Below, one piece after another: positions 4,777 through 39,147 of a stretch of 44,540 nt of DNA. Origin of the DNA: Escherichia phage vB_EcoS-phiEc4; sequence record MZ576218; one strand, given 5' to 3'. Position numbers and translations under genes: made by a program. The notes under the pieces were generated by a model. It was not told the origin of the DNA. It did no database searches and saw only the letters and a list, made by a program, of their open reading frames with translations. The first letter of the stretch is position 1. Each line of letters opens with the position of its first letter.

Positions 4777-4874
4777 AGTTCACCATTACCTGTATCAATG
4801 TCACCGATACCACTACAAGCCCAAATAAACATCGCCACATCAACTGCAATTACTACTGAAATAACGACTAACAT
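4773..4874 (-). CDS. 33-aa hydrophobic micro-protein (MLVVISVVIAVDVAMFIWACSGIGDIDTGNGEL)
   Basis: not in ORF track (<60 aa); strong RBS GAGGAGG 5 nt upstream of ATG; stop overlaps start of lipoprotein gene (ATGA coupling). Confidence 0.35.
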   Translation of the reverse strand: MLVVISVVIAVDVAMFIWACSGIGDIDTGNGEL

Positions 4875-4901
4875 GACGGCCTCCTCGGTTCGATAGAATG
4901 A

Positions 4902-4930
4902 ATAGTACCCTATTATATTGGGGTGTGCAA
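4902..4930 (-). promoter_or_regulatory. sigma70-like promoter P_A copy 1 (TTGCAC-17-TACTAT) with AATAG-N4-CTATT palindrome
   Basis: reverse complement reads TTGCACACCCCAATATAATAGGGTACTAT; 29-bp block recurs at 14137..14165, 37896..37924, 39119..39147. Confidence 0.6.
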
Positions 4931-4982
4931 ACTATTTATTTACGTATTCCAGTTATTCCACCGAATTGTAAATGTTGGAATA

Positions 4983-4998
4983 AACTATTCGAATAGTT
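4983..4998. repeat. 16-bp perfect palindrome AACTATTCGAATAGTT overlapping -35 of P_C1
   Basis: self-complementary as read; half-sites CTATT/AATAG are those of the promoter palindrome family but in opposite arrangement. Confidence 0.5.
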
Positions 4999-5025
4999 GA
5001 CTTTTCACTAAAAATATGATAAGCT
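4997..5025 (+). promoter_or_regulatory. promoter P_C copy 1 (TTGACT-17-TGaTAAGCT, extended -10)
   Basis: same -35, 17-bp spacing and TGn-TAAGCT as 37587..37615. Confidence 0.55.
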
Positions 5026-5031
5026 CCACCT

Positions 5032-5234
5032 GAGCTTGTGAAGTATGAACAAGCGACCGCGGCGCGGGCAGGTAACGGAGCGGGACGTAAGTCCTGAGTG
5101 TAGTTACGCTGACGCGTTCGGAAGGGCCATACTCTATTGCTTGTGTAAAAAGTAACAGGTTTACTTAGATTACGCCGTTTCTATGTTTAAATGATAAGGA
5201 CTAGCGCCCTGCTTTAAGGCAGGGCTTTACTTAT
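5032..5234 (+). ncRNA. promoter-proximal structured RNA element, copy 1 (candidate antitermination leader or sRNA)
   Basis: ~105-nt core homologous to 37621..37725 with compensatory changes in two helices; ends at terminator-like hairpin 5206..5234. Confidence 0.5.
5206..5234 (+). terminator. hairpin GCCCTGC-TTTAAG-GCAGGGC followed by TTTACTTAT
   Basis: 7-bp GC-rich stem and U-rich tail, 15 nt upstream of Rz start. Confidence 0.5.
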
Positions 5235-5249
5235 CGAGAAAGGGGAAAC

Positions 5250-5636
5250 ATGAATCTTAAAGCAACCGTCGTAGCAGGAGCATGTTTCATCATCCTGGCT
5301 TACACACACGGCATTTATCAGTACCGCAGCGGCTGGCACGAAGGCCGCGCTAATCTCGTTTCGCAGCAACAGCAGAAAGCACAGGCCGAGTTAGCGAAGA
5401 AAACACAACGGCAGCAGCAGGATGAATCAAAGGCCGCCGCCGCTGACAACGAAGGCAAGACGAAATCAGAGGTGATCACCCGTGAAGTCGTTAAGTACAT
5501 TAAAACTCCTGGTCGCAGCGTGTGCACTTTCGACCCTGAGCGCGTGCAGCTCAAGTCCCGCGCCGTCGCAAACGCCAATTCCATCCCCGGATACGACGAT
5601 GATGCAGCCGCCGTGCAAGCTGGCACCGCCGAGTAG
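5250..5636 (+). CDS. i-spanin (Rz-like)
   Basis: 128 aa; N-terminal TM segment, Gln/Lys-rich charged periplasmic region; contains +1-frame lipoprotein ORF. Confidence 0.6.
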   Translation: MNLKATVVAGACFIILAYTHGIYQYRSGWHEGRANLVSQQQQKAQAELAKKTQRQQQDESKAAAADNEGKTKSEVITREVVKYIKTPGRSVCTFDPERVQLKSRAVANANSIPGYDDDAAAVQAGTAE

Positions 5637-5745
5637 CGACGCTGACGAGGATTTAGCTATCGACGTTCAGAACGCTGAATGCGTACGGCAGCTGCGGCTG
5701 AAAGTGTTCATGTTGCAGGATTACGTGAGGAATATTCTGGAATAG
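5482..5745 (+). CDS. o-spanin (Rz1-like lipoprotein), overlapped architecture
   Basis: 87 aa in +1 frame relative to Rz; signal peptide with lipobox LSAC; Pro-rich mature region. Confidence 0.6.
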   Translation: MKSLSTLKLLVAACALSTLSACSSSPAPSQTPIPSPDTTMMQPPCKLAPPSSDADEDLAIDVQNAECVRQLRLKVFMLQDYVRNILE

Positions 5746-5827
5746 TTGCCTTGCATGTTGGAATAATTTATTCTTGACATGTAAATCCGGGTGGCCCGGG
5801 TTCCAACGTCCAGGGGACATACTGACT

Positions 5828-6532
5828 ATGAATCGTTTTTTACGTTATCCGTTCCAGGAAGAAGCTGGGGCAGAAGATAAAGCTGGTGGCGGTGACGCGC
5901 CGAAAATGTTCACCGCTGAAGAAGTTCAGGCGCTGATTGAGAAAGAAGTTGCCGGGCTTAAGGCTAATCAGGAAGCATTGTTGGCGGAGAAGAAAGAAGC
6001 CGCTCGCAAAGCAAAAGAGGCCGAAGAAGAACGGCAGCGCGCGCACCAGGAGGCGTTAAAAGCCGCTGGTAAGATGGATGAGTTCGAAAAGACGATTCGT
6101 AGCCAGTATGACCCGGTGTTAGCCGAGAAAGACGGTCGCATCTCCAGAATGGCAGAGCGTATCCTCGGCAGCGAACGTAAAGCGGTGCTAGGCTCTTTCG
6201 CGGGTGACTTTATTACCCCAGAAGCAGTGGACATTCTTGCGCCGTTCGTTAAGACTGAGTTCGAAGGCGATGATGTGGTTACTAAGTTTGTTGGTGCAGA
6301 CGGTAACGTAATCACGACTGACCCGGAACAGTTCCGCAAATACTTGCGAGAACACAAAGCGTTTTCACATTTGATTAAAGCAAATGCAGCTTCCGGCGGC
6401 GGGGCTTCCGGTAGCAAAGGCGGCGGGGCCGCACCAGCGTTTAAAGACATGAGTGAAGCGGAGCGTATCGCTCTGTACGAATCGAACCCTGCCGAATTTG
6501 AACGGCAACTTAAAGCCCTGAGGAAAAAATAA
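5828..6532 (+). CDS. scaffolding protein
   Basis: track ORF 5774..6532, first ATG at 5828; coiled-coil-like charged sequence (EAL/KEA repeats), immediately upstream of major capsid gene. Confidence 0.6.
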   Translation: MNRFLRYPFQEEAGAEDKAGGGDAPKMFTAEEVQALIEKEVAGLKANQEALLAEKKEAARKAKEAEEERQRAHQEALKAAGKMDEFEKTIRSQYDPVLAEKDGRISRMAERILGSERKAVLGSFAGDFITPEAVDILAPFVKTEFEGDDVVTKFVGADGNVITTDPEQFRKYLREHKAFSHLIKANAASGGGASGSKGGGAAPAFKDMSEAERIALYESNPAEFERQLKALRKK

Positions 6533-7581: not shown

Positions 7582-7597
7582 GGTTAAGCTATAATCG

Positions 7598-7625
7598 AGA
7601 GGGACTTCGGTCCCTCTTTTCATTT
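7598..7625 (+). terminator. rho-independent terminator after capsid gene
   Basis: 8-bp stem AGAGGGAC/GTCCCTCT with TTCG tetraloop followed by TTTCATTT. Confidence 0.75.
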
Positions 7626-10497: not shown

Positions 10498-11666
10498 ATA
10501 TGGCTACAACTCCTTTTAAGGGCGCGAATACCGCGCAATTCTATGTGGCGGAAGTGACCCCGGGCGTAACACCGGCTAACCCGGTATGGTCGCCGTTGCG
10601 CAACACGGGCGGCGTTCCTGCCATTACCCGCGACACGCTGACCTCCAACGAACTTGACGGCAGCCGAGAAACCACATCCATCCGCACCGGTAACAAGCAG
10701 GTTAGCGGAGAATACGCTATTGAGCTTAGCTCTAAAAGTCAGGACGACTGGTTAGCCGGGGCTTTAGGCTCTACGTGGCAATCCGGCGTTTCCCTGTCAG
10801 GACTATCGATTACCGTCGCACCCGCGGGCAAGACGTTCACACGCGCTACCGGCAGTTTTATCACTGACGGAGTTGGGGTAGGCGACCTGATTGCGTTTAC
10901 CGATTTAACAGGCGATAACGCAAAACCATTTATTGTTACTGCAGTAACGGCTACGGTTGTTACTGGTGCGGGCATCCAACACACCCTGACCACCGAGACA
11001 AAAACTAGTAAGGCTAAAACTGGCGACACGTTGGAAACCGGTAACACGTGTAAGACGTTCTCTATCCTTACCTGGTACAAAGGCCAGTGCGGCGGTACTG
11101 ACGCGTACACGTTAACCAAAGGCGTGGAAGTTTCTGGTTTTACCATCGAACAGGCTGTTAACGCGATGGTAACTGGCAGCTTCCCATTCATCGGTCGCAG
11201 TCAGGAGATTCTCACTACGCCGCCGACCGGTTCCAACTTCTCATCTGTTACTTTTGGTGATGAGCCGTTCTCTTCGGTTGACGTTTCCGTGTTCGATGGC
11301 TCTACGCCGTTGCGTTGTGATAGCCTTACCATCACCAACGACAACAGCGCGTCCGCGCAGTTCGAACTCGGCAACTCTAACGTTGCGTTTGTGGAACGTA
11401 GCCGCGCAGCTAACACCTTCTCCATCTCCGGTAAGCTGTATGACATGGCTATGATTCAGAAGTTTATCAACGAGCAGCAGGTAGAGATTAACTCTATTCT
11501 GGCAGGGGTAAACGGGGCTATGTCTTTCAGTTTGAAACGTGCAGAGCTTACGGCGGTTACACCAGAGATTGGCGGACCCGAGTCAATCACTCAGTCCATT
11601 GAGGGGCAGGCCACCGGCAACCAGTACCAGTCGTCTATCGTAATTCAACGTATCACCTACGCATAA
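10494..11666 (+). CDS. major tail protein
   Basis: 390 aa, Thr/Gly/Ser-rich beta-type sequence; followed by strong terminator; upstream of chaperone and tape measure genes. Confidence 0.7.
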   Translation: MNMATTPFKGANTAQFYVAEVTPGVTPANPVWSPLRNTGGVPAITRDTLTSNELDGSRETTSIRTGNKQVSGEYAIELSSKSQDDWLAGALGSTWQSGVSLSGLSITVAPAGKTFTRATGSFITDGVGVGDLIAFTDLTGDNAKPFIVTAVTATVVTGAGIQHTLTTETKTSKAKTGDTLETGNTCKTFSILTWYKGQCGGTDAYTLTKGVEVSGFTIEQAVNAMVTGSFPFIGRSQEILTTPPTGSNFSSVTFGDEPFSSVDVSVFDGSTPLRCDSLTITNDNSASAQFELGNSNVAFVERSRAANTFSISGKLYDMAMIQKFINEQQVEINSILAGVNGAMSFSLKRAELTAVTPEIGGPESITQSIEGQATGNQYQSSIVIQRITYA

Positions 11667-11671
11667 AACTA

Positions 11672-11697
11672 AGGCCCCTTTCGGGGCCTTTTTCTTA
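11672..11697. terminator. bidirectional rho-independent terminator
   Basis: AGGCCCC-TTTC-GGGGCCT followed by TTTTTCTT; between convergent major tail gene (+) and kinase gene (-). Confidence 0.75.
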
Positions 11698-14094: not shown

Positions 14095-14136
14095 AACATA
14101 ACTCCTGATTTGAGATAACATCGTTGGTGTAAGTGA

Positions 14137-14165
14137 ATAGTACGCTATTATATTGGGGGGTGCAA
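14137..14165 (-). promoter_or_regulatory. promoter P_A copy 2 (TTGCAC-17-TACTAT) with AATAG-TACG-CTATT palindrome
   Basis: near-identical to 4902..4930; drives the minus-strand Imm/phosphoesterase/phosphatase/kinase operon. Confidence 0.6.
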
Positions 14166-14272
14166 GTAGTGTGCTAGAATAATTTTGCGCCTAGTGTCGC
14201 ACACGAAAAGCGGGTGGTTCCCGTCTGGCGCATTTCCTTTAACCAGTAACCTCTTAACCAAAGGATTAAAGA

Positions 14273-22255: not shown

Positions 22256-24241
22256 ATGTCAAGCGGATGCGGTGACGTTTTAAGCCTGGCGGATTTACAG
22301 ACCGCCAAGAAACATCAGATTTTCGAGGCCGAGGTTATCACTGGCAAATCCGGCGGTGTAGCTACGGGTGCAGACATTGATTACGCAACAAATCAGGTTA
22401 CCGGGCAGACGCAGAAGACGCTTCCTGCCGTGTTGCGCGACGCGGGTTTTTCTCCGGTGTCATGGGATTTCTCCACAGGCGGCACGTTAACCGTTAACGA
22501 CCGGGACAAGGTGGTGTATGACCCTGTTAGCGAAACATGGTACTCGTACGCAGGTACGTTACCAGTTGTTGTCCCTGCATCGTTTAATCCAGTCGGTAAC
22601 GCTAACTGGAAGCCGCAGACAGACCCAAATTTGCGTAATGATTTGGCGTCAAGTACCGCCGGTTTGGGGGCTTCACTGGTGTCTTTTTCCAACGGTAACA
22701 CCGTTGAAACATTATCTGACGCGGACGGTGCCAAGAACATAGGCAGCGGCGAAAGGAGTTTGCTTGCACGTAACAATGATATTAAGCATTCAGGAGACTT
22801 CTCTACCCTGCAAGCTGCAGTAGATGCATCGTTACCGAAAAATGACTTACTTATTTCCCCTGGTGAATATACTGAAAAAGTTACTATTGGTAGCGCACAG
22901 TTAAAAGGCGTTGGTGGGGCTGTAGTACTAAAAACACCAGCAGACTTTACAAACACTGTTCAGGTTAATTTATCGACGCCTCATTGGCAATTCCGCCATA
23001 GTGGCGGTTTTGCTATAGATGGTTCTGGTACAACCGGGGCCGTAGGTATTAGTTTTGACCCGTCAGACCAATATTCCGGACGTCATAATTTTAGTGATTT
23101 ATACATACACAACATCAACAAGGCAATTCAGAAGCCTTCCGGGAACATCGGTAATACATGGAGAAATATTGGGGTATCTACGTGTGATTGGGGGTATTAC
23201 GCGATTAGTGGCTCAGAGATGCATTGCGGGGCCGATACCCTCTACAATATCCACTTCGACGGCATCTCCACCTATGCCGTCTACCTAAACGGCACTGCCG
23301 ATAACGGCGGGATAGGCGGATGGTGGCTTAAAGACTCCATTATTGAGGCTTCCGGAGGTGGCGGGATATATTTAAAAAGCAAATCAGGTGACTGCCCTAC
23401 ATCTCCATGCGGGGTATCCAATGTATGGACGGAAGCGATTGCAACATCATCGGCTGTTCAGGTAGACGGCGTGGCGCAAAAACCGCGAGTTCTCAAGTTG
23501 GTAGACACTGCGATATTCTTTGCTGAGTATTCTTATCTCAACAACATCGAGCTATCCAACTCCAACTTAGTAACTTATGGTTGCCGTTTTGACAACGCTG
23601 ATGGTAATCAGGATATTGTAGTGGATGCACAAAGCACCATTGTAGCCCACGATGTGTATTTAAACGGCAGTTCTGGAAAGGACGTTATTGTAGAGTCTGT
23701 CGCGTCGCAATCCGCAACGGTAGCCACTACAAACTTGTCTCTGCGAGGAAATTTAACAAGGGGACGAGTGTTTAATACGCCGACGGGGAATAAGTTAAAA
23801 GCTATCACATTTGACTCAGGTAGCCATAATTTTTCTGGTAGCGGTACCGTTAACGGTTCGACTGTATCTGACGGACTTCACGCCGCTACATGTACCGAAT
23901 TTTCATTCCCTGGGTCCGGTTTATATGAAATGGTAGCGTCAAGAACGACACTTACATCCGGTAGATGGTACGTGTGGGGCGTCAACTCTCGCCTCCAATC
24001 AGGAACAGCAGATGTGAGTATAACGTCAGGTATTACTATGGGTAGCGTTTATACTAAGTCTGGTGAGTGGATTAGCACATTTGGGGTGGGTAAAGCTTCC
24101 GCTAACGGTACTGTAAGTCTGTACGTCTCTACTGCGGGAGGTTCAGGTGCTGTTATCAGATTTAGCGACTTCTTCATCGCTGAGTTTACGACGCAGGCTC
24201 AGGCTTTAGCTTTCGCTAACTCCCGAATGTCGTTGGCTTAA
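22256..24241 (+). CDS. tailspike protein (beta-helix depolymerase-like)
   Basis: 661 aa; N-terminal particle-binding-like domain; Gly/Asn/Ser/Thr-rich repetitive C-terminal region typical of right-handed beta-helix tailspikes; last gene of structural block. Confidence 0.65.
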   Translation: MSSGCGDVLSLADLQTAKKHQIFEAEVITGKSGGVATGADIDYATNQVTGQTQKTLPAVLRDAGFSPVSWDFSTGGTLTVNDRDKVVYDPVSETWYSYAGTLPVVVPASFNPVGNANWKPQTDPNLRNDLASSTAGLGASLVSFSNGNTVETLSDADGAKNIGSGERSLLARNNDIKHSGDFSTLQAAVDASLPKNDLLISPGEYTEKVTIGSAQLKGVGGAVVLKTPADFTNTVQVNLSTPHWQFRHSGGFAIDGSGTTGAVGISFDPSDQYSGRHNFSDLYIHNINKAIQKPSGNIGNTWRNIGVSTCDWGYYAISGSEMHCGADTLYNIHFDGISTYAVYLNGTADNGGIGGWWLKDSIIEASGGGGIYLKSKSGDCPTSPCGVSNVWTEAIATSSAVQVDGVAQKPRVLKLVDTAIFFAEYSYLNNIELSNSNLVTYGCRFDNADGNQDIVVDAQSTIVAHDVYLNGSSGKDVIVESVASQSATVATTNLSLRGNLTRGRVFNTPTGNKLKAITFDSGSHNFSGSGTVNGSTVSDGLHAATCTEFSFPGSGLYEMVASRTTLTSGRWYVWGVNSRLQSGTADVSITSGITMGSVYTKSGEWISTFGVGKASANGTVSLYVSTAGGSGAVIRFSDFFIAEFTTQAQALAFANSRMSLA

Positions 24242-24246
24242 AACTA

Positions 24247-24270
24247 AGGCCCCAAACGGGGCCTTTTCTC
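24247..24270. terminator. bidirectional rho-independent terminator
   Basis: AGGCCCC-AAAC-GGGGCCT followed by TTTTCTC; between convergent tailspike (+) and minus-strand genes. Confidence 0.75.
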
Positions 24271-27277: not shown

Positions 27278-27465
27278 TTTGCCACCAGAACTAACTCTTT
27301 ACGCCCGAACGCCGTAACGTTACCGGTTACATCTTCGATAACCAGTTTACCGTTCGACTCGACGTACACCGTATCAACGGCAACAGGCCGACGGGTCTTA
27401 ACGTTGAAAATCATGTCGCCAGGTACGATGTCACGTGCTGGTTTGCGGTCATATTCGTGTTTCAT
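27274..27465 (-). CDS. hypothetical protein
   Basis: 63 aa ORF, ATGA-coupled to methyltransferase gene; preceded by P_B promoter. Confidence 0.5.
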   Translation of the reverse strand: MKHEYDRKPARDIVPGDMIFNVKTRRPVAVDTVYVESNGKLVIEDVTGNVTAFGRKELVLVAK

Positions 27466-27495
27466 TTCTCAATTACTTATATTGTTGGTGTAGGA

Positions 27496-27783
27496 CTAAC
27501 TATAATAGTTCGCTATTAGGGCGTCAACCTGTTTAAACGAACCAACGACAAAAACATTAGCACCACGCTTACGCATCCGCTCGTGCTCCCGTAACTGGTG
27601 TGGATCCGGCTTCGTGCTTTCGTCTTTCTTTATCTCGACGAACCAGATGACGCCGCCGGGGAGAATTACCAGCAGGTCAGGGGCGCCGGAACGTCCTTCG
27701 TAGGAAAGTTTACGAACGAGGCCACCAATGGCCTCGAATCGGTCTTTTGCGTATTTCTGTATTTTGCCCTCAGGCGTACTCAT
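27496..27783 (-). CDS. VRR-NUC domain nuclease
   Basis: track ORF 27496..27819; likely start ATG 27783 with RBS GAGGGG; motif GAPDLLVILPGGVIWFVEIKK. Confidence 0.7.
   Translation of the reverse strand: MSTPEGKIQKYAKDRFEAIGGLVRKLSYEGRSGAPDLLVILPGGVIWFVEIKKDESTKPDPHQLREHERMRKRGANVFVVGSFKQVDALIANYYS
27499..27527 (-). promoter_or_regulatory. promoter P_B (TTGACG-17-TATAGT) with AATAG-TTCG-CTATT palindrome in spacer
   Basis: reverse complement reads TTGACGCCCTAATAGCGAACTATTATAGT; same layout as 31259..31287 and 34170..34198. Confidence 0.55.
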
Positions 27784-27868
27784 CCACACACCCCTCACGT
27801 TTCGTATGCGCAATACCACAGCGCGGACAGATCCGGCGGTCTTCTTCGTAGAACCAGTAAATTTTCAT
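27770..27868 (-). CDS. 32-aa Cys-rich micro-protein (MKIYWFYEEDRRICPRCGIAHTKREGCVDEYA)
   Basis: not in track; ATGA overlap with upstream micro-ORF; CxxC..H..C spacing. Confidence 0.25.
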   Translation of the reverse strand: MKIYWFYEEDRRICPRCGIAHTKREGCVDEYA

Positions 27869-27996
27869 TCCAGCACCCACAGATAAATTGTTACTAACAT
27901 ACCTAATACGGCAACCATCATGCCGTATTGACCCTCGTGACAGTAGACACCGGCGGCGAATCCCGCCAGTACCGCAATAATCAGTTTACTTGGCAT
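27865..27996 (-). CDS. 43-aa hydrophobic micro-protein (MPSKLIIAVLAGFAAGVYCHEGQYGMMVAVLGMLVTIYLWVLE)
   Basis: not in track; start overlaps 3' end of polymerase gene. Confidence 0.3.
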   Translation of the reverse strand: MPSKLIIAVLAGFAAGVYCHEGQYGMMVAVLGMLVTIYLWVLE

Positions 27997-30250
27997 ATCG
28001 CTTCATCTCCGCACCTTCAGCTACAAGAGGGAACCCCTCCGCCCATTCCGGCAATTCGCACATCAACCGCTCAAGCTCTGCTACATTGTATTCCGGTGAA
28101 TCTGGTGTCTCGCAGATAATCTCATCGTGTACGTGAAGTACAATCGGGTAGCCGTTTGCTTCTACGTTCAGCAGGGCATTAGCCAGCAAATCACGGCACA
28201 ATGCCTGAGTGCAGTTTTCCACCAGTTTACCGGAGTAGGTGTACTGGAAGCCCCACTGCCTGGTTAACTGATTTTCACCCTGATACTTGATGCGCACGTT
28301 AGTAGAAACTTTTCCGTCTTCGTCTGTCTCTTTTGACACGCTCAACCCGACGCCCGGGTATGACATAACGCGACCTGACGGCAACGTCATGCGCAACCAC
28401 CAACCAGCGACTTTGTTGCCGTTGTTGTCTGTTTCTACGTTGCGAGAAAACTTAACCCCGCGAGGGCCAGCGGTGAACTCTTTACCTGGATTGCGGATAG
28501 CTGCCATAGCGGCGTCTTCAATATCCCGCCAGAACGCTACTGTTTCCGGGTGGGACTCCCGCCACATACGCTTGATAGCGTCGCAGGTACGCCACACTTT
28601 CTTATCAAGAATATATGATGGTCGGTCATCTTTTTCACCGGGCCGCGGAGGTCGCTTTGCTTCCTGAATACGCGCCCATTCATAGCCGCGTGCAGTAGCG
28701 GCCCATATATGGTCCGGGAAAGTACCGTCCATTGTTTTAGCCATATCAACCAGGTTTAAGCCGAGGTTCTTAGCAAACTGAACGAAAGCACCGACACCAC
28801 CAGCATAGCCAAGTCCCAATTCACATGCTTTACCTATCTGGCGTAGGTCACTACGGCTTTCGAGAATGTAATCAGGGTCCATGCCGAACATCTTACCCGC
28901 GGTTACACAGTAAATATCCAATCCCGCACGGAAGGTATCGAGAGCGGTTTCTTCTCCCGCCAGCCATGCCAACCCGCGACCTTCAACGTTAGAGTAATCA
29001 GCTACGACAAACTTACGCCCGGCTTCCGGTATGATGCAGCTACGCACCGTCGATGCCGTTAGCTTGGCTACATCGAAACGGCGATGCGCGCGGCCTTTAA
29101 ACAACAGGTCGATTCCGTAGGACAATGGGTGTGTTACTCTCCACCAATCCTTCTCTGACATCCAGTCATAACGTACTTTCTTCTTTTTATTCTTCGGGTC
29201 GTCGTGATAGTACCCACGCGCGAGGTTCTGCGGCTGGAAGCCTTTACCTGCAAACCGTAACGTACGCTTAGCTCCACCATATTGTATGCAACCGCGACGG
29301 CGGTCGTCAGAAGAGCGGCCTAACAGCAGCGGGTTATATTTCGTGGACGCTGTTGACGCGGCCCCGAGGCGCATTTCGATAATCGTGCGGGCGTCGTCAG
29401 GTAAATCATCATCGGCCAGCAGGTCATTCAGCGTCGACTTCTGTGCGTTGTGTATGCGGTGTGCGGGGGCCAGTTCACGTAGAATAGGCAGAAAGTCCTT
29501 ACCGGTAAGCGAGCCGCCGTATTTACGTTGAGCTTCTTCCTGTAACTGTGCCTTGTGCTTCTCTACGGCTTCAATCGCGGCTTCCGCCAGTGCGACGTCA
29601 ACCTTAAATCCGCGGTCGTTGATTAACTGGTCAAGTTCCAGTACACGGTCTTCGAACTCGGAGTTACCCCAACGCGGCAGCTTATGGAAGACTTCACGCA
29701 TCGCAGTGATGTCGCTCACGGCGTACCTGATGAACATCGCCCACTCGTCAGGGTGAGTTTCTGCGGTGTAGCGGCGGATTTTGTAGTTCTTCGGCGTCGG
29801 TTTAGAGAAACGCTTAATCAGAGCCTTGCCGCGTTTATCTTTCGCGTTGTCTGCAGACACGCCCAGCACTTCGCACAGCGCATCAAGAGAACCCGGCAGC
29901 GCGTGACGGAACGCCCAAATCATAGTATCAATGGTGTTACTTACCGGAATATCAAAGCCCCAGCAGTGTTTCATGATTAGGCGATCGAAAAGTCCACCGT
30001 TGTGCCACACAATCTTGATGCGGCTGTTGGGCTTAACAAGGCGGCGCAGTGCGCGGTGCAAATCCCCCGGCATGTCGCTGCCGTCGGTGCAATCCCATAC
30101 CTGCACAGGCTCTTCGTCAAAAGCATAGGTACAGATAAGCACTTCGGTTGACGGGTGTTCAGCGTAAGCGTAGGAACCTACTTTCTTCAAATCGATGTCG
30201 CTGTAGGTTTCAAAGTCTAAGTAAAGCAATGTGTTCATAGTCTGTACCAC
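27986..30250 (-). CDS. DNA polymerase, family A with 3'-5' exonuclease domain
   Basis: 754 aa; Exo I LYLDFETYS; motif B-like RQIGKACELGLGYAGG; motif C VHDEI. Confidence 0.85.
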   Translation of the reverse strand: MVQTMNTLLYLDFETYSDIDLKKVGSYAYAEHPSTEVLICTYAFDEEPVQVWDCTDGSDMPGDLHRALRRLVKPNSRIKIVWHNGGLFDRLIMKHCWGFDIPVSNTIDTMIWAFRHALPGSLDALCEVLGVSADNAKDKRGKALIKRFSKPTPKNYKIRRYTAETHPDEWAMFIRYAVSDITAMREVFHKLPRWGNSEFEDRVLELDQLINDRGFKVDVALAEAAIEAVEKHKAQLQEEAQRKYGGSLTGKDFLPILRELAPAHRIHNAQKSTLNDLLADDDLPDDARTIIEMRLGAASTASTKYNPLLLGRSSDDRRRGCIQYGGAKRTLRFAGKGFQPQNLARGYYHDDPKNKKKKVRYDWMSEKDWWRVTHPLSYGIDLLFKGRAHRRFDVAKLTASTVRSCIIPEAGRKFVVADYSNVEGRGLAWLAGEETALDTFRAGLDIYCVTAGKMFGMDPDYILESRSDLRQIGKACELGLGYAGGVGAFVQFAKNLGLNLVDMAKTMDGTFPDHIWAATARGYEWARIQEAKRPPRPGEKDDRPSYILDKKVWRTCDAIKRMWRESHPETVAFWRDIEDAAMAAIRNPGKEFTAGPRGVKFSRNVETDNNGNKVAGWWLRMTLPSGRVMSYPGVGLSVSKETDEDGKVSTNVRIKYQGENQLTRQWGFQYTYSGKLVENCTQALCRDLLANALLNVEANGYPIVLHVHDEIICETPDSPEYNVAELERLMCELPEWAEGFPLVAEGAEMKRYAK

Positions 30251-31258: not shown

Positions 31259-31287
31259 ACTATAATAGCTAACTATTCATGTGTCAA
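31259..31287 (-). promoter_or_regulatory. promoter P_B (TTGACA-17-TATAGT) with AATAG-CTAA-CTATT palindrome in spacer
   Basis: reverse complement reads TTGACACATGAATAGTTAGCTATTATAGT. Confidence 0.6.
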
Positions 31288-34169: not shown

Positions 34170-34198
34170 ACTATAATAGCGAACTATTCACATGTCAA
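34170..34198 (-). promoter_or_regulatory. promoter P_B (TTGACA-17-TATAGT) with AATAG-CGAA-CTATT palindrome in spacer
   Basis: reverse complement reads TTGACATGTGAATAGTTCGCTATTATAGT; divergent from the HTH gene promoter. Confidence 0.6.
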
Positions 34199-34262: not shown

Positions 34263-34478
34263 ATGCAACCATCCGAACTAGGCATCCGTGTAGAGCAACG
34301 CCGTAAAGAACTCGGCATCTCCCAGCGCCGTCTGGCTGTCCTGGCCGGTGTCTCCCAGGGCGCAATTAACCAGCTGGCTCTCGGTGTAACTCAGGACGTC
34401 CGCCCGGCAACGTTGTTTAAACTGGCGGAAGTGCTGGAAGTAGACGCTAAGTGGCTGGCGTTCGGTGAAGGGGCTTGA
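34263..34478 (+). CDS. XRE-family HTH transcriptional regulator (Cro/CI-like)
   Basis: 71 aa; helix-turn-helix GISQRRLAVLAGVSQGAINQL; RBS AAGGAG; divergent from replication-module promoter. Confidence 0.7.
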   Translation: MQPSELGIRVEQRRKELGISQRRLAVLAGVSQGAINQLALGVTQDVRPATLFKLAEVLEVDAKWLAFGEGA

Positions 34479-37023: not shown

Positions 37024-37314
37024 TTATCTTTTAGCCAGACATTCCATCAAATGTGCGTACTTACGATAATAATCTGCGACAATCTCATCACCGAAATACT
37101 GATAAACGTAGGATAGGTGGTCGGAGACATCGATGGAAGCCGACATTGTGCTGAGTCTTCTTAGACTAATCGACTGCAATTCTTCTGTAACGCAAAACGG
37201 CAAATATGAGTCCAGTTTACAGGAAACGTTAAAACACAACGCATACTCACCTTGCACTAAATAGACCATATAAGCACTGTCATTTTCTTTATCGTGGAAA
37301 ATTACACCTTTCAT
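37024..37314 (-). CDS. hypothetical protein
   Basis: 96 aa; ATGA overlap with upstream HTH gene. Confidence 0.45.
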   Translation of the reverse strand: MKGVIFHDKENDSAYMVYLVQGEYALCFNVSCKLDSYLPFCVTEELQSISLRRLSTMSASIDVSDHLSYVYQYFGDEIVADYYRKYAHLMECLAKR

Positions 37315-37481
37315 TTCACGTTCTCCTTAATCCACGCTTCAACTTTATTACGGTCAAATGTTCCTGGTAAACGGCGCCCCATTACTTTAACGCTGCAATC
37401 AGGAAACTTTCCACTCTTAATCCAGTTATTGATTGTCTGGCGGGTGACGCCGATTAATTCTGCAACTTCATTGATAGTCAT
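37311..37481 (-). CDS. AlpA/excisionase-type HTH DNA-binding protein
   Basis: track ORF 37311..37571; likely start ATG 37481 with RBS AGGAGA; motif TINEVAELIGVTRQTINNWIK. Confidence 0.55.
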   Translation of the reverse strand: MTINEVAELIGVTRQTINNWIKSGKFPDCSVKVMGRRLPGTFDRNKVEAWIKENVK

Positions 37482-37510
37482 CTCGCGCTCTCCTGTGTAA
37501 TATGTATCGA

Positions 37511-37539
37511 AGTATAAGGCGGTAACTTTGTAAAAGCAA
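37511..37539 (-). promoter_or_regulatory. sigma70-like promoter (TTGCTT-17-TATACT) for minus-strand operon
   Basis: read on reverse complement; TSS about 23 nt upstream of ATG 37481. Confidence 0.5.
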
Positions 37540-37586
37540 CCAAAACACCACGCAAAGTTACTAAAATACAAAAGATGCTACTGGTA

Positions 37587-37615
37587 TTGACTTTTACTTG
37601 AAAATATGCTAAGCT
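37587..37615 (+). promoter_or_regulatory. promoter P_C copy 2 (TTGACT-17-TGcTAAGCT, extended -10)
   Basis: same architecture as 4997..5025. Confidence 0.55.
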
Positions 37616-37620
37616 TCACT

Positions 37621-37858
37621 GAGCTTGTGAGATATCGCAAGCGACCGCGGAGCGGCAGGGAACGCAACGCGTGCCATTAGGCACTTGAGTGTAGTTCCGC
37701 TGACGCTTTCGGAAGGGTCAAAGTCTATTGTTAATCCCGCCTAAATATCCAAGTCACGGATAATTAAAAGTTTCTATAGTTGCCGTGAGCAAGGTAGAGA
37801 GTACTTCACTCCGCTGGGGTGGGCTAACGCCCACCCACTGCGTTGCGTACTCTTTTAA
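37621..37858 (+). ncRNA. promoter-proximal structured RNA element, copy 2
   Basis: core 37621..37725 homologous to 5032..5135 with compensatory substitutions; 3' region has GC-rich hairpin GGGTGGGC-TAAC-GCCCACCC nested in AGAGTAC/GTACTCT helix followed by TTTT. Confidence 0.5.
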
Positions 37859-37895: not shown

Positions 37896-37924
37896 TTGCA
37901 CACCCCAACATAATAGGATACTAT
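37896..37924 (+). promoter_or_regulatory. promoter P_A copy 3 (TTGCAC-17-TACTAT) with AATAG-GATA-CTATT palindrome
   Basis: TTGCACACCCCAACATAATAGGATACTAT; followed by leader GAGACAGAGGAG and gene 37959. Confidence 0.6.
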
Positions 37925-38971: not shown

Positions 38972-39004
38972 TGTTCAATAGTTTGGGATTTTACTGAGTG
39001 ACTT

Positions 39005-39040
39005 ACGCTGCTACACAGCAGCGTATCATTTTTCTCATTT
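39005..39040 (+). terminator. rho-independent terminator
   Basis: ACGCTGCT-ACAC-AGCAGCGT 8-bp stem followed by ATCATTTTTCTCATTTTTG. Confidence 0.65.
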
Positions 39041-39118: not shown

Positions 39119-39147
39119 TTGCACACTAAGATAGAATAGGCTACTAT
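39119..39147 (+). promoter_or_regulatory. promoter P_A copy 4 (TTGCAC-17-TACTAT) with AATAG-GCTA-CTATT palindrome
   Basis: TTGCACACTAAGATAGAATAGGCTACTAT; followed by leader GAGAGACAGAGG as in copy 3. Confidence 0.6.

Follow-up and report, generated by a model that had tools for sequence, protein, structure and literature searches.

The DNA analysed here, a 44.5-kb window (44,540 nt; MZ576218) from Escherichia phage vB_EcoS-phiEc4, is a near-complete Kagunavirus genome (Guernseyvirinae) that carries two copies of a promoter-proximal structured RNA element. Copy 1 lies before the lysis gene Rz and the head genes, and copy 2 lies upstream of the rightward early-lysis-packaging region. Copy 1 is preceded by a predicted promoter on the + strand (4997-5025; a good -35 hexamer, TTGACT at 4997-5002, a 17-nt spacer and an extended -10 element, TG at 5017-18 plus TAAGCT at 5020-25) with a predicted start near 5032, and copy 2 by its counterpart TTGACT-17-TGcTAAGCT (37587-37615, + strand; predicted start near 37621-22). 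Alignment of the two blocks begins at the -35 hexamer and extends to about +110, beyond which they diverge. Exactly two matches to the promoter pattern TTGACTTTT..AAAATATGnTAAGCT occur in the window, at 4997-5025 and 37587-37615, as do exactly two occurrences of the 32-nt core TGAGTGTAGTTnCGCTGACGCnTTCGGAAGGG, and neither is found in shuffled sequence. The copy-1 region is 99.6% identical to those of Bas71, phiEc3 and K-01, among others (BLAST). As set out below, selection on an RNA structure downstream of the promoter is well supported by comparison of sequences, and the element is an uncatalogued, covariation-supported RNA family of an already known kind, the structured promoter-proximal phage leader RNAs.

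The element spans ~90-95 nt and consists of a first stem-loop (SL1), a 2-nt junction, a long irregular second stem-loop (SL2) with five helical segments (P2a-P2e) and a conserved tail. When the stretch from the predicted start to the end of SL2 is folded alone, the minimum-free-energy (MFE) structure is the proposed pair of hairpins in both copies. On the + strand of copy 1, SL1 (5034-5054) pairs GCUUGU (5034-39) with ACAAGC (5049-54) around a 9-nt loop, and SL2 (5057-5121) is built from P2a (5057-59/5119-21), P2b (5061-66/5113-18), P2c (5069-71/5109-11), P2d (5072-76/5103-07) and P2e (5081-86/5091-96). The inner hairpin GGAC-GUAA-GUCC (5083-5094), with GUAA as the apical loop, is enclosed by GUAAC (5072-76) paired with GUUAC (5103-07), and an asymmetric internal loop places GGAG (5077-80) opposite AGUGUA (5097-5102). 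A single-stranded tail follows (5122-5139, + strand; AAGGGCC..CUCUAUUG). Copy 2, also on the + strand, has GCUUGUGA-GAUA-UCGCAAGC as SL1 (37623-37642) and an SL2 (37645-37712) in which P2d is GGAAC (37659-63) with GUUCC (37694-98) and the apical hairpin is GUGCC-AUUA-GGCAC (37671-84), followed by the tail AAGGGUCAAAGUCUAUUG (37713-37730, + strand). It scores 82.8 and 101.5 bits on two covariance models. The coordinates and sequences given for these features in a first-pass annotation of the window, made from the letters alone, were all correct on checking.

A covariance model was seeded on copy 1 with a hand-drawn structure and later rebuilt; BLAST, pattern scans of IMG/VR and the model together recovered five sequence types. 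Type A comprises copy 1 of Kagunaviruses and of 65 Salmonella phages, type B is copy 2 of this window, types C/C' and D are copy 2 of other Kagunaviruses, and type E is copy 1 of most Jerseyviruses (269 records). With 38 distinct sequences placed on the rebuilt model, standard pairs fill 97.4% of cells, a figure that drops to 33-38% on sliding the 3' partners by 1-3 columns, and 15 of the 29 base pairs are changed on both sides (0 of 500 shuffles reach the observed values), the pairing alignment being fitted to the model's structure and the changes tracing to about 5-6 lineages, not to dozens of events. The compensatory changes are located in P2b, P2c, P2d and P2e: the third pair of P2b is C-G, U-A or A-U, P2d occurs as GUAAC/GUUAC, GGAAC/GUUCC or CGCG/CGCG, and six or more distinct sequences are found in the apical stem. 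SL1 varies as well, with GCUUGU/ACAAGC in types A-D, a stem lengthened to 8 bp and closed by a GAUA loop in type B, and UACGCU-UUC-AGCGUA in the same place in type E. From the two copies in the window, the first-pass annotation had concluded that compensatory change implied selection on RNA structure, a conclusion that now extends to ~450 genomes and five types, with the substitutions in homologous helices largely preserving pairing.

The structure belongs to the + strand transcript, because two G-U pairs in P2b are invariant and the + strand folds better than its reverse complement by 9-12 kcal/mol (-37.7 and -43.9 kcal/mol, compared with -25.3 and -35.1). Since the z-scores of single-sequence folding are unremarkable (-1.6 for copy 1 and -2.8 for copy 2), the case rests on the comparative evidence. 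Sequence conservation extends to unpaired positions. The junction AGCG(U)ACCGCGG is conserved where the helices diverge; the internal loop GRAGC / AG(U/C)GUA persists through types A, B, D and E, only its 3' side being clear in type C; and the tail GGAAGG-N9-UAUUG is retained by the same four types, whereas type C has the variant GGGAGG and a single type-C' contig the variant UAUUA. These conserved unpaired nucleotides point to recognition by a macromolecule or to a tertiary fold, beyond a generic hairpin.

These nucleotides bear on a reading in which the element controls the stability or processing of a 5' untranslated region (5' UTR), with SL1, at about +3, shielding the 5' end of the late mRNA in the manner of ompA, or the ~23-bp SL2 serving as an RNase III site that sets half-life or translation. 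The element shares with ompA-type stabilisers and T7 RNase III hairpins a 5'-terminal hairpin (in every type 2-3 nt from the predicted start), a long irregular hairpin interrupted by an asymmetric internal loop, and modular association with expression signals, promoter and leader forming a portable cassette that is duplicated and swapped. The outline of SL2, in which an asymmetric internal loop separates an upper from a lower stem, is presumably comparable to that of phage T7 RNase III sites, and the one genome that lacks the distal part of SL2 (UPWr_S1, described below) still keeps SL1. However, a generic stabiliser or RNase III substrate needs no strict conservation of junction, loop and tail across types whose helices have diverged, and the conservation of these sequences exceeds the needs of the known elements. 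Such a role would also leave unexplained a repeat of the -10 hexamer at the start site, and we consider it rather unlikely.

Several further structures and a coding role were considered. A pseudoknot between the SL1 loop and the tail (AGUAUG with CAUACU), present in the full-length MFE structure of type A, was rejected because the middle of the tail varies without compensation. By eye, no boxA-like tail, K-turn or sarcin-ricin internal loop, or antiterminator pairing of tail with terminator fits across types. Small 'hypothetical proteins' of 36-40 aa overlie the element (window 5043-5153; Bas71_0007, CPT_Snoke_007, K56_007) and are not conserved between types or copies. A coding role for the 36-aa open reading frame was rejected, copy 2 having no start codon and frame and length shifting with indels between types. 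The reading frames annotated over the element are probably annotation artefacts, and its presence would account for these spurious entries.

The 3' part of the leader is less constant. In copy 1 the tail is followed by an A/U-rich, C-poor and weakly conserved spacer (5140-5205, + strand) and by a weak terminator-like hairpin (5206-5234, + strand), GCCCUGC-UUUAAG-GCAGGGC (5206-5225) plus UUUACUUAUC, which is called by a terminator scan. The ATG of Rz (5250) lies 24 nt past the end of the hairpin stem (5225) and 16 nt past the terminator-like site (5234). This stem also covaries across phages (GCCCCGC/GCGGGGC, GCCCGGC/GCCGGGC, GCCCGAC/GUCGGGC). The 3' hairpin of copy 2 (37812-37856, + strand) has an 8-bp core (37817-24/37829-36) with a U-run ~15 nt later. 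The order of promoter, conserved structured domain, hairpin and ribosome-binding site is the classical one for a riboswitch-like or attenuator leader, which would sense a ligand or protein and switch the structure of a terminator or ribosome-binding site. However, the conserved domain stops about 85 nt before the hairpin, the spacer between them is poorly conserved, no alternative pairing of tail with hairpin is common to the copies or types (by eye), and Rfam yields no match even at E<=10; a sensing leader is thus very improbable.

The element is near-universal in Guernseyvirinae, with copy 1 upstream of Rz in 180 phage records of types A-D (BLAST) and 269 of type E. Promoter and RNA are both present in the two copies of the window and in all types A-E, type E retaining the hexamers and their spacing as TAGACT-17-TGnTACGCT. 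Copy 1 is ancestral and copy 2 is a duplication in a minority of Kagunaviruses; the copies recombine, since one contig has a type-D core in the copy-1 context. In Bas71 (4850-5130) and Jerseyvirus jersey (27330-28160), the copy-2 slot holds unrelated cassettes of promoter, structured noncoding RNA and hairpin, for which an Rfam search returned nothing relevant. The jersey cassette comprises ~830 nt of noncoding sequence, and its 3' part, with a hairpin GGGCAGG..CCUGCCC, is common to 335 phage records. Between Jerseyviruses that are otherwise ~95% identical, types A and E replace each other within a mosaic block of ~900 bp (50-70% identity; Kenya-K1 versus Kenya-K56, about 5200-6090). The block spans the C-terminus of the decoration protein, the whole leader and the N-terminus of Rz, and is a local block, the only difference between the type-A and type-E Jerseyviruses compared. 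Such exchange would suit a partner of the RNA that is supplied by the host, or a conserved factor. Scans of IMG/VR, metagenomes and 100,044 genomes, one for each bacterial species, found no element beyond Guernseyvirinae-like contigs, other pattern matches being due to chance in G+C-rich DNA. The metagenome and species-genome scans gave known types only, on phage-like or tiny contigs, the covariance-model check of the metagenome scan covering the first 100 of 120 loci. The family looks confined to Guernseyvirinae.

A -10-like repeat, TGAGCT, lies at 5031-5036 (+ strand) in copy 1, at about -1..+5, where it overlaps the 5' arm of SL1, and at 37620-37625 (+ strand) in copy 2. It covaries with the -10 hexamer, the pair being TAAGCT/TGAGCT for types A-D but TACGCT/TACGCT for type E, and the repeated hexamer is complementary to one arm of SL1; types A-D thus show AAGCT-N6/7-AGCTT, and type E shows TACGCT..TACGCT..AGCGTA (window 5020-5038 and 37610-37627; comparison locus about 5770-5800). 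The repeat may be a sigma70 pause element, an operator or a partner for alternative pairing in read-through transcripts. The sigma70-dependent pause elements of lambda Q (at PR') and Pseudomonas aeruginosa AlpA (at PalpB) occupy the same position, about -1..+5 (PMC9371919). By analogy, the hexamer could serve a sigma70-dependent pause, a reading that is tentative because the same hexamer forms part of SL1. Further upstream, the + strand region 4944-4996 contains TATTCC direct repeats (4944-4959), an inverted GGAATA (4977-4982) and the palindrome CTATTCGAATAG (4985-4996). These motifs are kept in type-E phages despite diverged surroundings (57-65% identity) and are absent upstream of copy 2; they are possible regulator sites for the late promoter.

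Resemblance to the lambda and P. aeruginosa systems extends beyond the start site and suggests protein-dependent control of the late genes. In such a scheme a Q- or AlpA-like factor would act at the promoter or pause element, or an N-like or other phage protein would bind SL1/SL2 as at a nut site, with timed read-through into the late genes. The copy-1 architecture of Kagunaviruses mirrors lambda PR'-6S-tR' and PalpB-tB (PMC9371919): as in lambda PR'-qut-6S RNA-tR' with Q and PalpB-tB with AlpA, a constitutive-looking promoter with the -10-like hexamer is followed by a ~200-nt untranslated leader, a weak terminator-like hairpin and then lysis (Rz) and head genes. The promoter spacer is partly common to copies 1 and 2, an early HTH_17 gene is divergent from copy 2 and adjoins it, and there are many small early proteins of no known function. 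However, comparison of 20 small proteins with PHROGs, of 5 with Pfam and of the HTH_17 protein with PDB sequences, none of it aimed at remote fold-level homologues, recognised no N-, Q- or AlpA-type protein. The HTH_17 protein itself is excisionase-like and matches neither AlpA (PF05930) nor the AlpA of P. aeruginosa. The spacer in type E is merely A/T-rich and not conserved, the type-E leader hairpin has lost its U-tract in Jerseyviruses and is not terminator-like, and the A/E swaps occur without a linked protein change. Moreover, RNA secondary structure is conserved here yet dispensable in those systems, Q-type mechanisms having no need of RNA folding. The proposal of a lambda PR'-tR'-like unit, one of several roles raised in the first-pass annotation, hence fits copy 1 of Kagunaviruses in its layout (leader of about 200 nt, hairpin plus UUUACUUAU, Rz and head genes, -10-like hexamer); it falls short in that no Q, N or AlpA protein is recognised and the folding of the RNA is left unexplained. 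Dependence on such a protein is, on balance, distinctly unlikely.

No family in Rfam 15 matches the element (whole window at gathering score; around copy 1 only noise at E<=10), and literature searches found no description of it. Among known RNAs, the closest parallel considered is put of phage HK022, which acts in cis without protein factors, through the zinc-binding domain of the beta' subunit, and suppresses pausing and termination. Both are promoter-proximal, with putL starting from +3 and the element from about +3, and both have two stem-loops, of which the second is interrupted by bulges and internal loops. Both also occur as two diverged copies with compensatory differences before two operons (here, in this window), and both are transcribed by enterobacterial sigma70 RNA polymerase. 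A possible sigma-dependent pause element lies nearby in each case, putL having been proposed to use one (PMC9378689). The differences are that put is about 70 nt long and the element about 90 nt, that stem I of put has a triplex whereas SL1 here is a plain 6-8-bp hairpin, and that a conserved tail follows the hairpins here, in a virulent, non-lambdoid phage family in which copy 2 is optional. With putL and putR located in the immunity region of the HK022 genome as test targets, neither covariance model gave a hit to them at E<=1, and Smith-Waterman local alignment gave p = 0.09-0.96 against shuffles. The run GAsCGCGGCG..CAGG..AACGG, which resembles put, is not significant and is paired differently. 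The earlier suggestion of a put-like role is thus untenable as homology and survives as analogy alone (promoter-proximal position, two hairpins, two copies). The EAR element (eps-associated RNA) and further leaders active in processive antitermination, the LoaP leaders and conAn2, are likewise structured, ~100-nt, covariation-supported RNAs in or at the head of long terminator-bearing operons; the element here differs from them in matching neither EAR nor another Rfam family, in its hosts and in having no associated NusG paralogue.

The layout of the late operon is consistent with such an analogy. Copy 1 is the sole recognisable promoter before the Rz, scaffold, capsid, connector and tail-tube genes, and a strong terminator (7597-7618) lies within the head operon, after the major capsid gene and 25 nt before the next gene, with no space for a promoter. 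The favoured explanation, to which we assign a probability of roughly one in three, is that the element is a cis-acting module of the nascent RNA that engages the host polymerase, alone or with a factor, and alters pausing or termination on the late operon, put-like by analogy. Host sigma70 RNA polymerase would make the leader RNA from its own extended -10 promoter, and once folded, the nascent RNA, by itself or together with a host factor or an unrecognised phage factor, would engage the polymerase that made it and change its elongation. A sigma70-dependent pause at the -10-like hexamer of the start site may help loading. The modified polymerase would then pause less and transcribe through both the weak leader hairpin and downstream intrinsic terminators, the post-capsid one among them, working overall as HK022 put does without being a put homologue. 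This reading is favoured because promoter and RNA are always linked, recognition-type nucleotides are conserved, a pause-like hexamer lies at the start, and the operon holds terminators while no protein antiterminator is recognisable. The more specific proposal is doubtful: that virulent, non-lambdoid siphophages of Escherichia coli and Salmonella carry a second, evolutionarily independent class of RNA-only, put-like antiterminators, loaded at a promoter-adjacent sigma70 pause and governing late head, lysis and packaging transcription.

A number of observations weigh against an elongation-modifying module. Neither of the two covariance models nor alignment against shuffles revealed similarity to put, and the one RNA-seq study of a Kagunavirus is at gene level only, without noncoding or start-site information (PMC12645636). 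A terminator to be overcome immediately is not universal, because the type-E (Jerseyvirus) version of the copy-1 hairpin, in 269 phages, has UUAGCG.. in place of a U-tract, and the copy-2 hairpin (37817-37836), which the terminator scan did not call, is not directly followed by one; with its U-run only ~15 nt downstream, the latter is not a canonical intrinsic terminator. The first-pass view that the unit ends at a terminator accordingly holds only in part, copy 1 having a weak terminator-like hairpin and copy 2 and the Jerseyviruses lacking an adjacent U-tract. The strong post-capsid terminator is conserved, which suggests that termination there is functional, and it would be pointless if polymerase ignored terminators altogether. 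In the copy-2 operon, operator-bearing promoters of its own lie before the first gene and after the terminator at 39004. The second place is occupied in about 50 of the 180 Kagunavirus/type-A records, 19 of them with full-length type B, and in no type-E record, and the copy-2 slot in most family members holds unrelated cassettes. Finally, in Jerseyvirus jersey UPWr_S1 (MT588083.1, 38251-38315; 1 of 251 type-E records), 46 nt of the distal SL2 are deleted between ACCGCG direct repeats with SL1 kept, which is either a natural knockout or an assembly error.

A leader-derived or stand-alone small RNA (sRNA) acting in trans is a rival reading that draws its best support from copy 2. Units of about 200 nt (copy 1) and about 235 nt (copy 2) would be freed by termination or processing, and the 5' domain would bind a target of host or phage, for instance an mRNA, RNA polymerase or an RNA-binding protein. 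Copy 2 has its own promoter, a 3' hairpin and an independent promoter downstream, and the same slot elsewhere in Guernseyvirinae holds other cassettes of promoter, structured RNA and hairpin. The 5' domain is conserved in both copies and the 3' parts are variable, and the conserved unpaired motifs could act as seed or protein-binding sites. However, the 3' hairpins of copy 2 and type E are poor intrinsic terminators, and the copy-1 transcript must continue, because ahead of Rz and the head genes copy 1 is the only recognisable promoter. A check by eye, against the conserved early 5' UTR module only, identified no complementary target. Release as an sRNA is, for the family as a whole, an explanation that we judge unlikely, if a serious one for copy 2.

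To our knowledge, control of RNA polymerase by RNA alone is known from essentially one phage lineage, that of HK022 put. If the element is indeed a put-like module of this kind, it would add an unrelated second case from a large subfamily with therapeutic uses (Jersey-like Salmonella phages, K1-specific coliphages), implying that the strategy is general, and it would offer a compact new RNA-polymerase-binding fold to study. Even if it proves to be a stabiliser or an sRNA, there would still stand an uncatalogued RNA family, supported by covariation and located at the start of the late operon in about 450 sequenced phages. The element also marks a probable late promoter, which is useful for engineering Guernseyvirinae phages.

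The wider gene map of the window was transferred from annotated relatives. On the + strand, the rightward early-lysis-packaging genes start at ~37.95 kb and continue over the end of the window as far as 4.6 kb (small early genes, holins, endolysin, nin-like genes, terminase, portal, head morphogenesis), followed by the head/lysis block (5.25-11.67 kb; Rz/Rz1, scaffold, major capsid, connectors, tail tube) and the tail genes (14.27-24.24 kb). The replication genes (24.4-37.5 kb) are leftward, on the - strand. Copy 2 sits upstream of the early-lysis-packaging region, at the divergence point beside the primase/helicase genes and at the cumulative GC-skew minimum, a location that could suit a transcript-primed replication origin, with an R-loop or primer RNA arising from the promoter; the DNA after the element is A/T-rich, and the replication genes of annotated relatives are T7-like. 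However, the GC skew merely follows gene orientation, the universal copy is copy 1, which lies among structural genes and not at a skew switch, copy 2 is missing from most genomes, and no iterons were seen in the repeats of the window. The origin or R-loop primer raised in the first-pass annotation is therefore poorly supported, and we give it hardly any credence.

An independent promoter/operator, TTGCAC-17-TACTAT with AATAGGATACTATT (37896-37924, + strand), separates copy 2 from the first early gene (ATG 37959). It belongs to a repeat family with other members at 4930-4899(-), 14165-14134(-) and 39119-39147(+), the last directly after a strong terminator (39004-39025). A palindrome, AATAG-N4-CTATT, lies between or over the hexamers of two promoter families, TTGCAC-17-TACTAT and TTGACA-17-TATAGT, with sites at 4899-4930(-), 14134-14165(-), 37896-37924(+) and 39119-39147(+), and at 27499-27527, 31259-31287 and 34170-34198 (all -). 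Members of both families are probably early promoters that share an operator, and one of these palindrome-bearing promoters has a Cro-like HTH_3 gene (34263-34478) divergent from it. The inverted repeat GTAACTTTG / CAAAGTTAC (37522-37561) lies across a candidate leftward promoter, TTGCTT-17-TATACT, for the early HTH_17 gene (37311-37491, - strand) and is a possible autoregulatory operator. Two near-identical bidirectional terminators (11661-11692 and 24236-24267; AAGGCCCC-loop-GGGGCCTT with A- and T-runs on either side) close the head and tail operons where leftward gene blocks meet them.

The only Rfam match in the window is int-alpA (RF02996; 36.6 bits compared with a gathering score of 35.8), at 14184-14248(+). 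This RNA begins at the predicted start of an extended -10 promoter (TG 14172-73, TAGAAT 14175-80) just upstream of the tail operon (14273 onward). It is unrelated to the element in sequence and structure, and resembles it in being a second promoter-proximal structured RNA in the same phage. Because int-alpA heads the tail operon, the head and tail operons, and here also the early-lysis-packaging region, each follow a promoter-proximal structured RNA.

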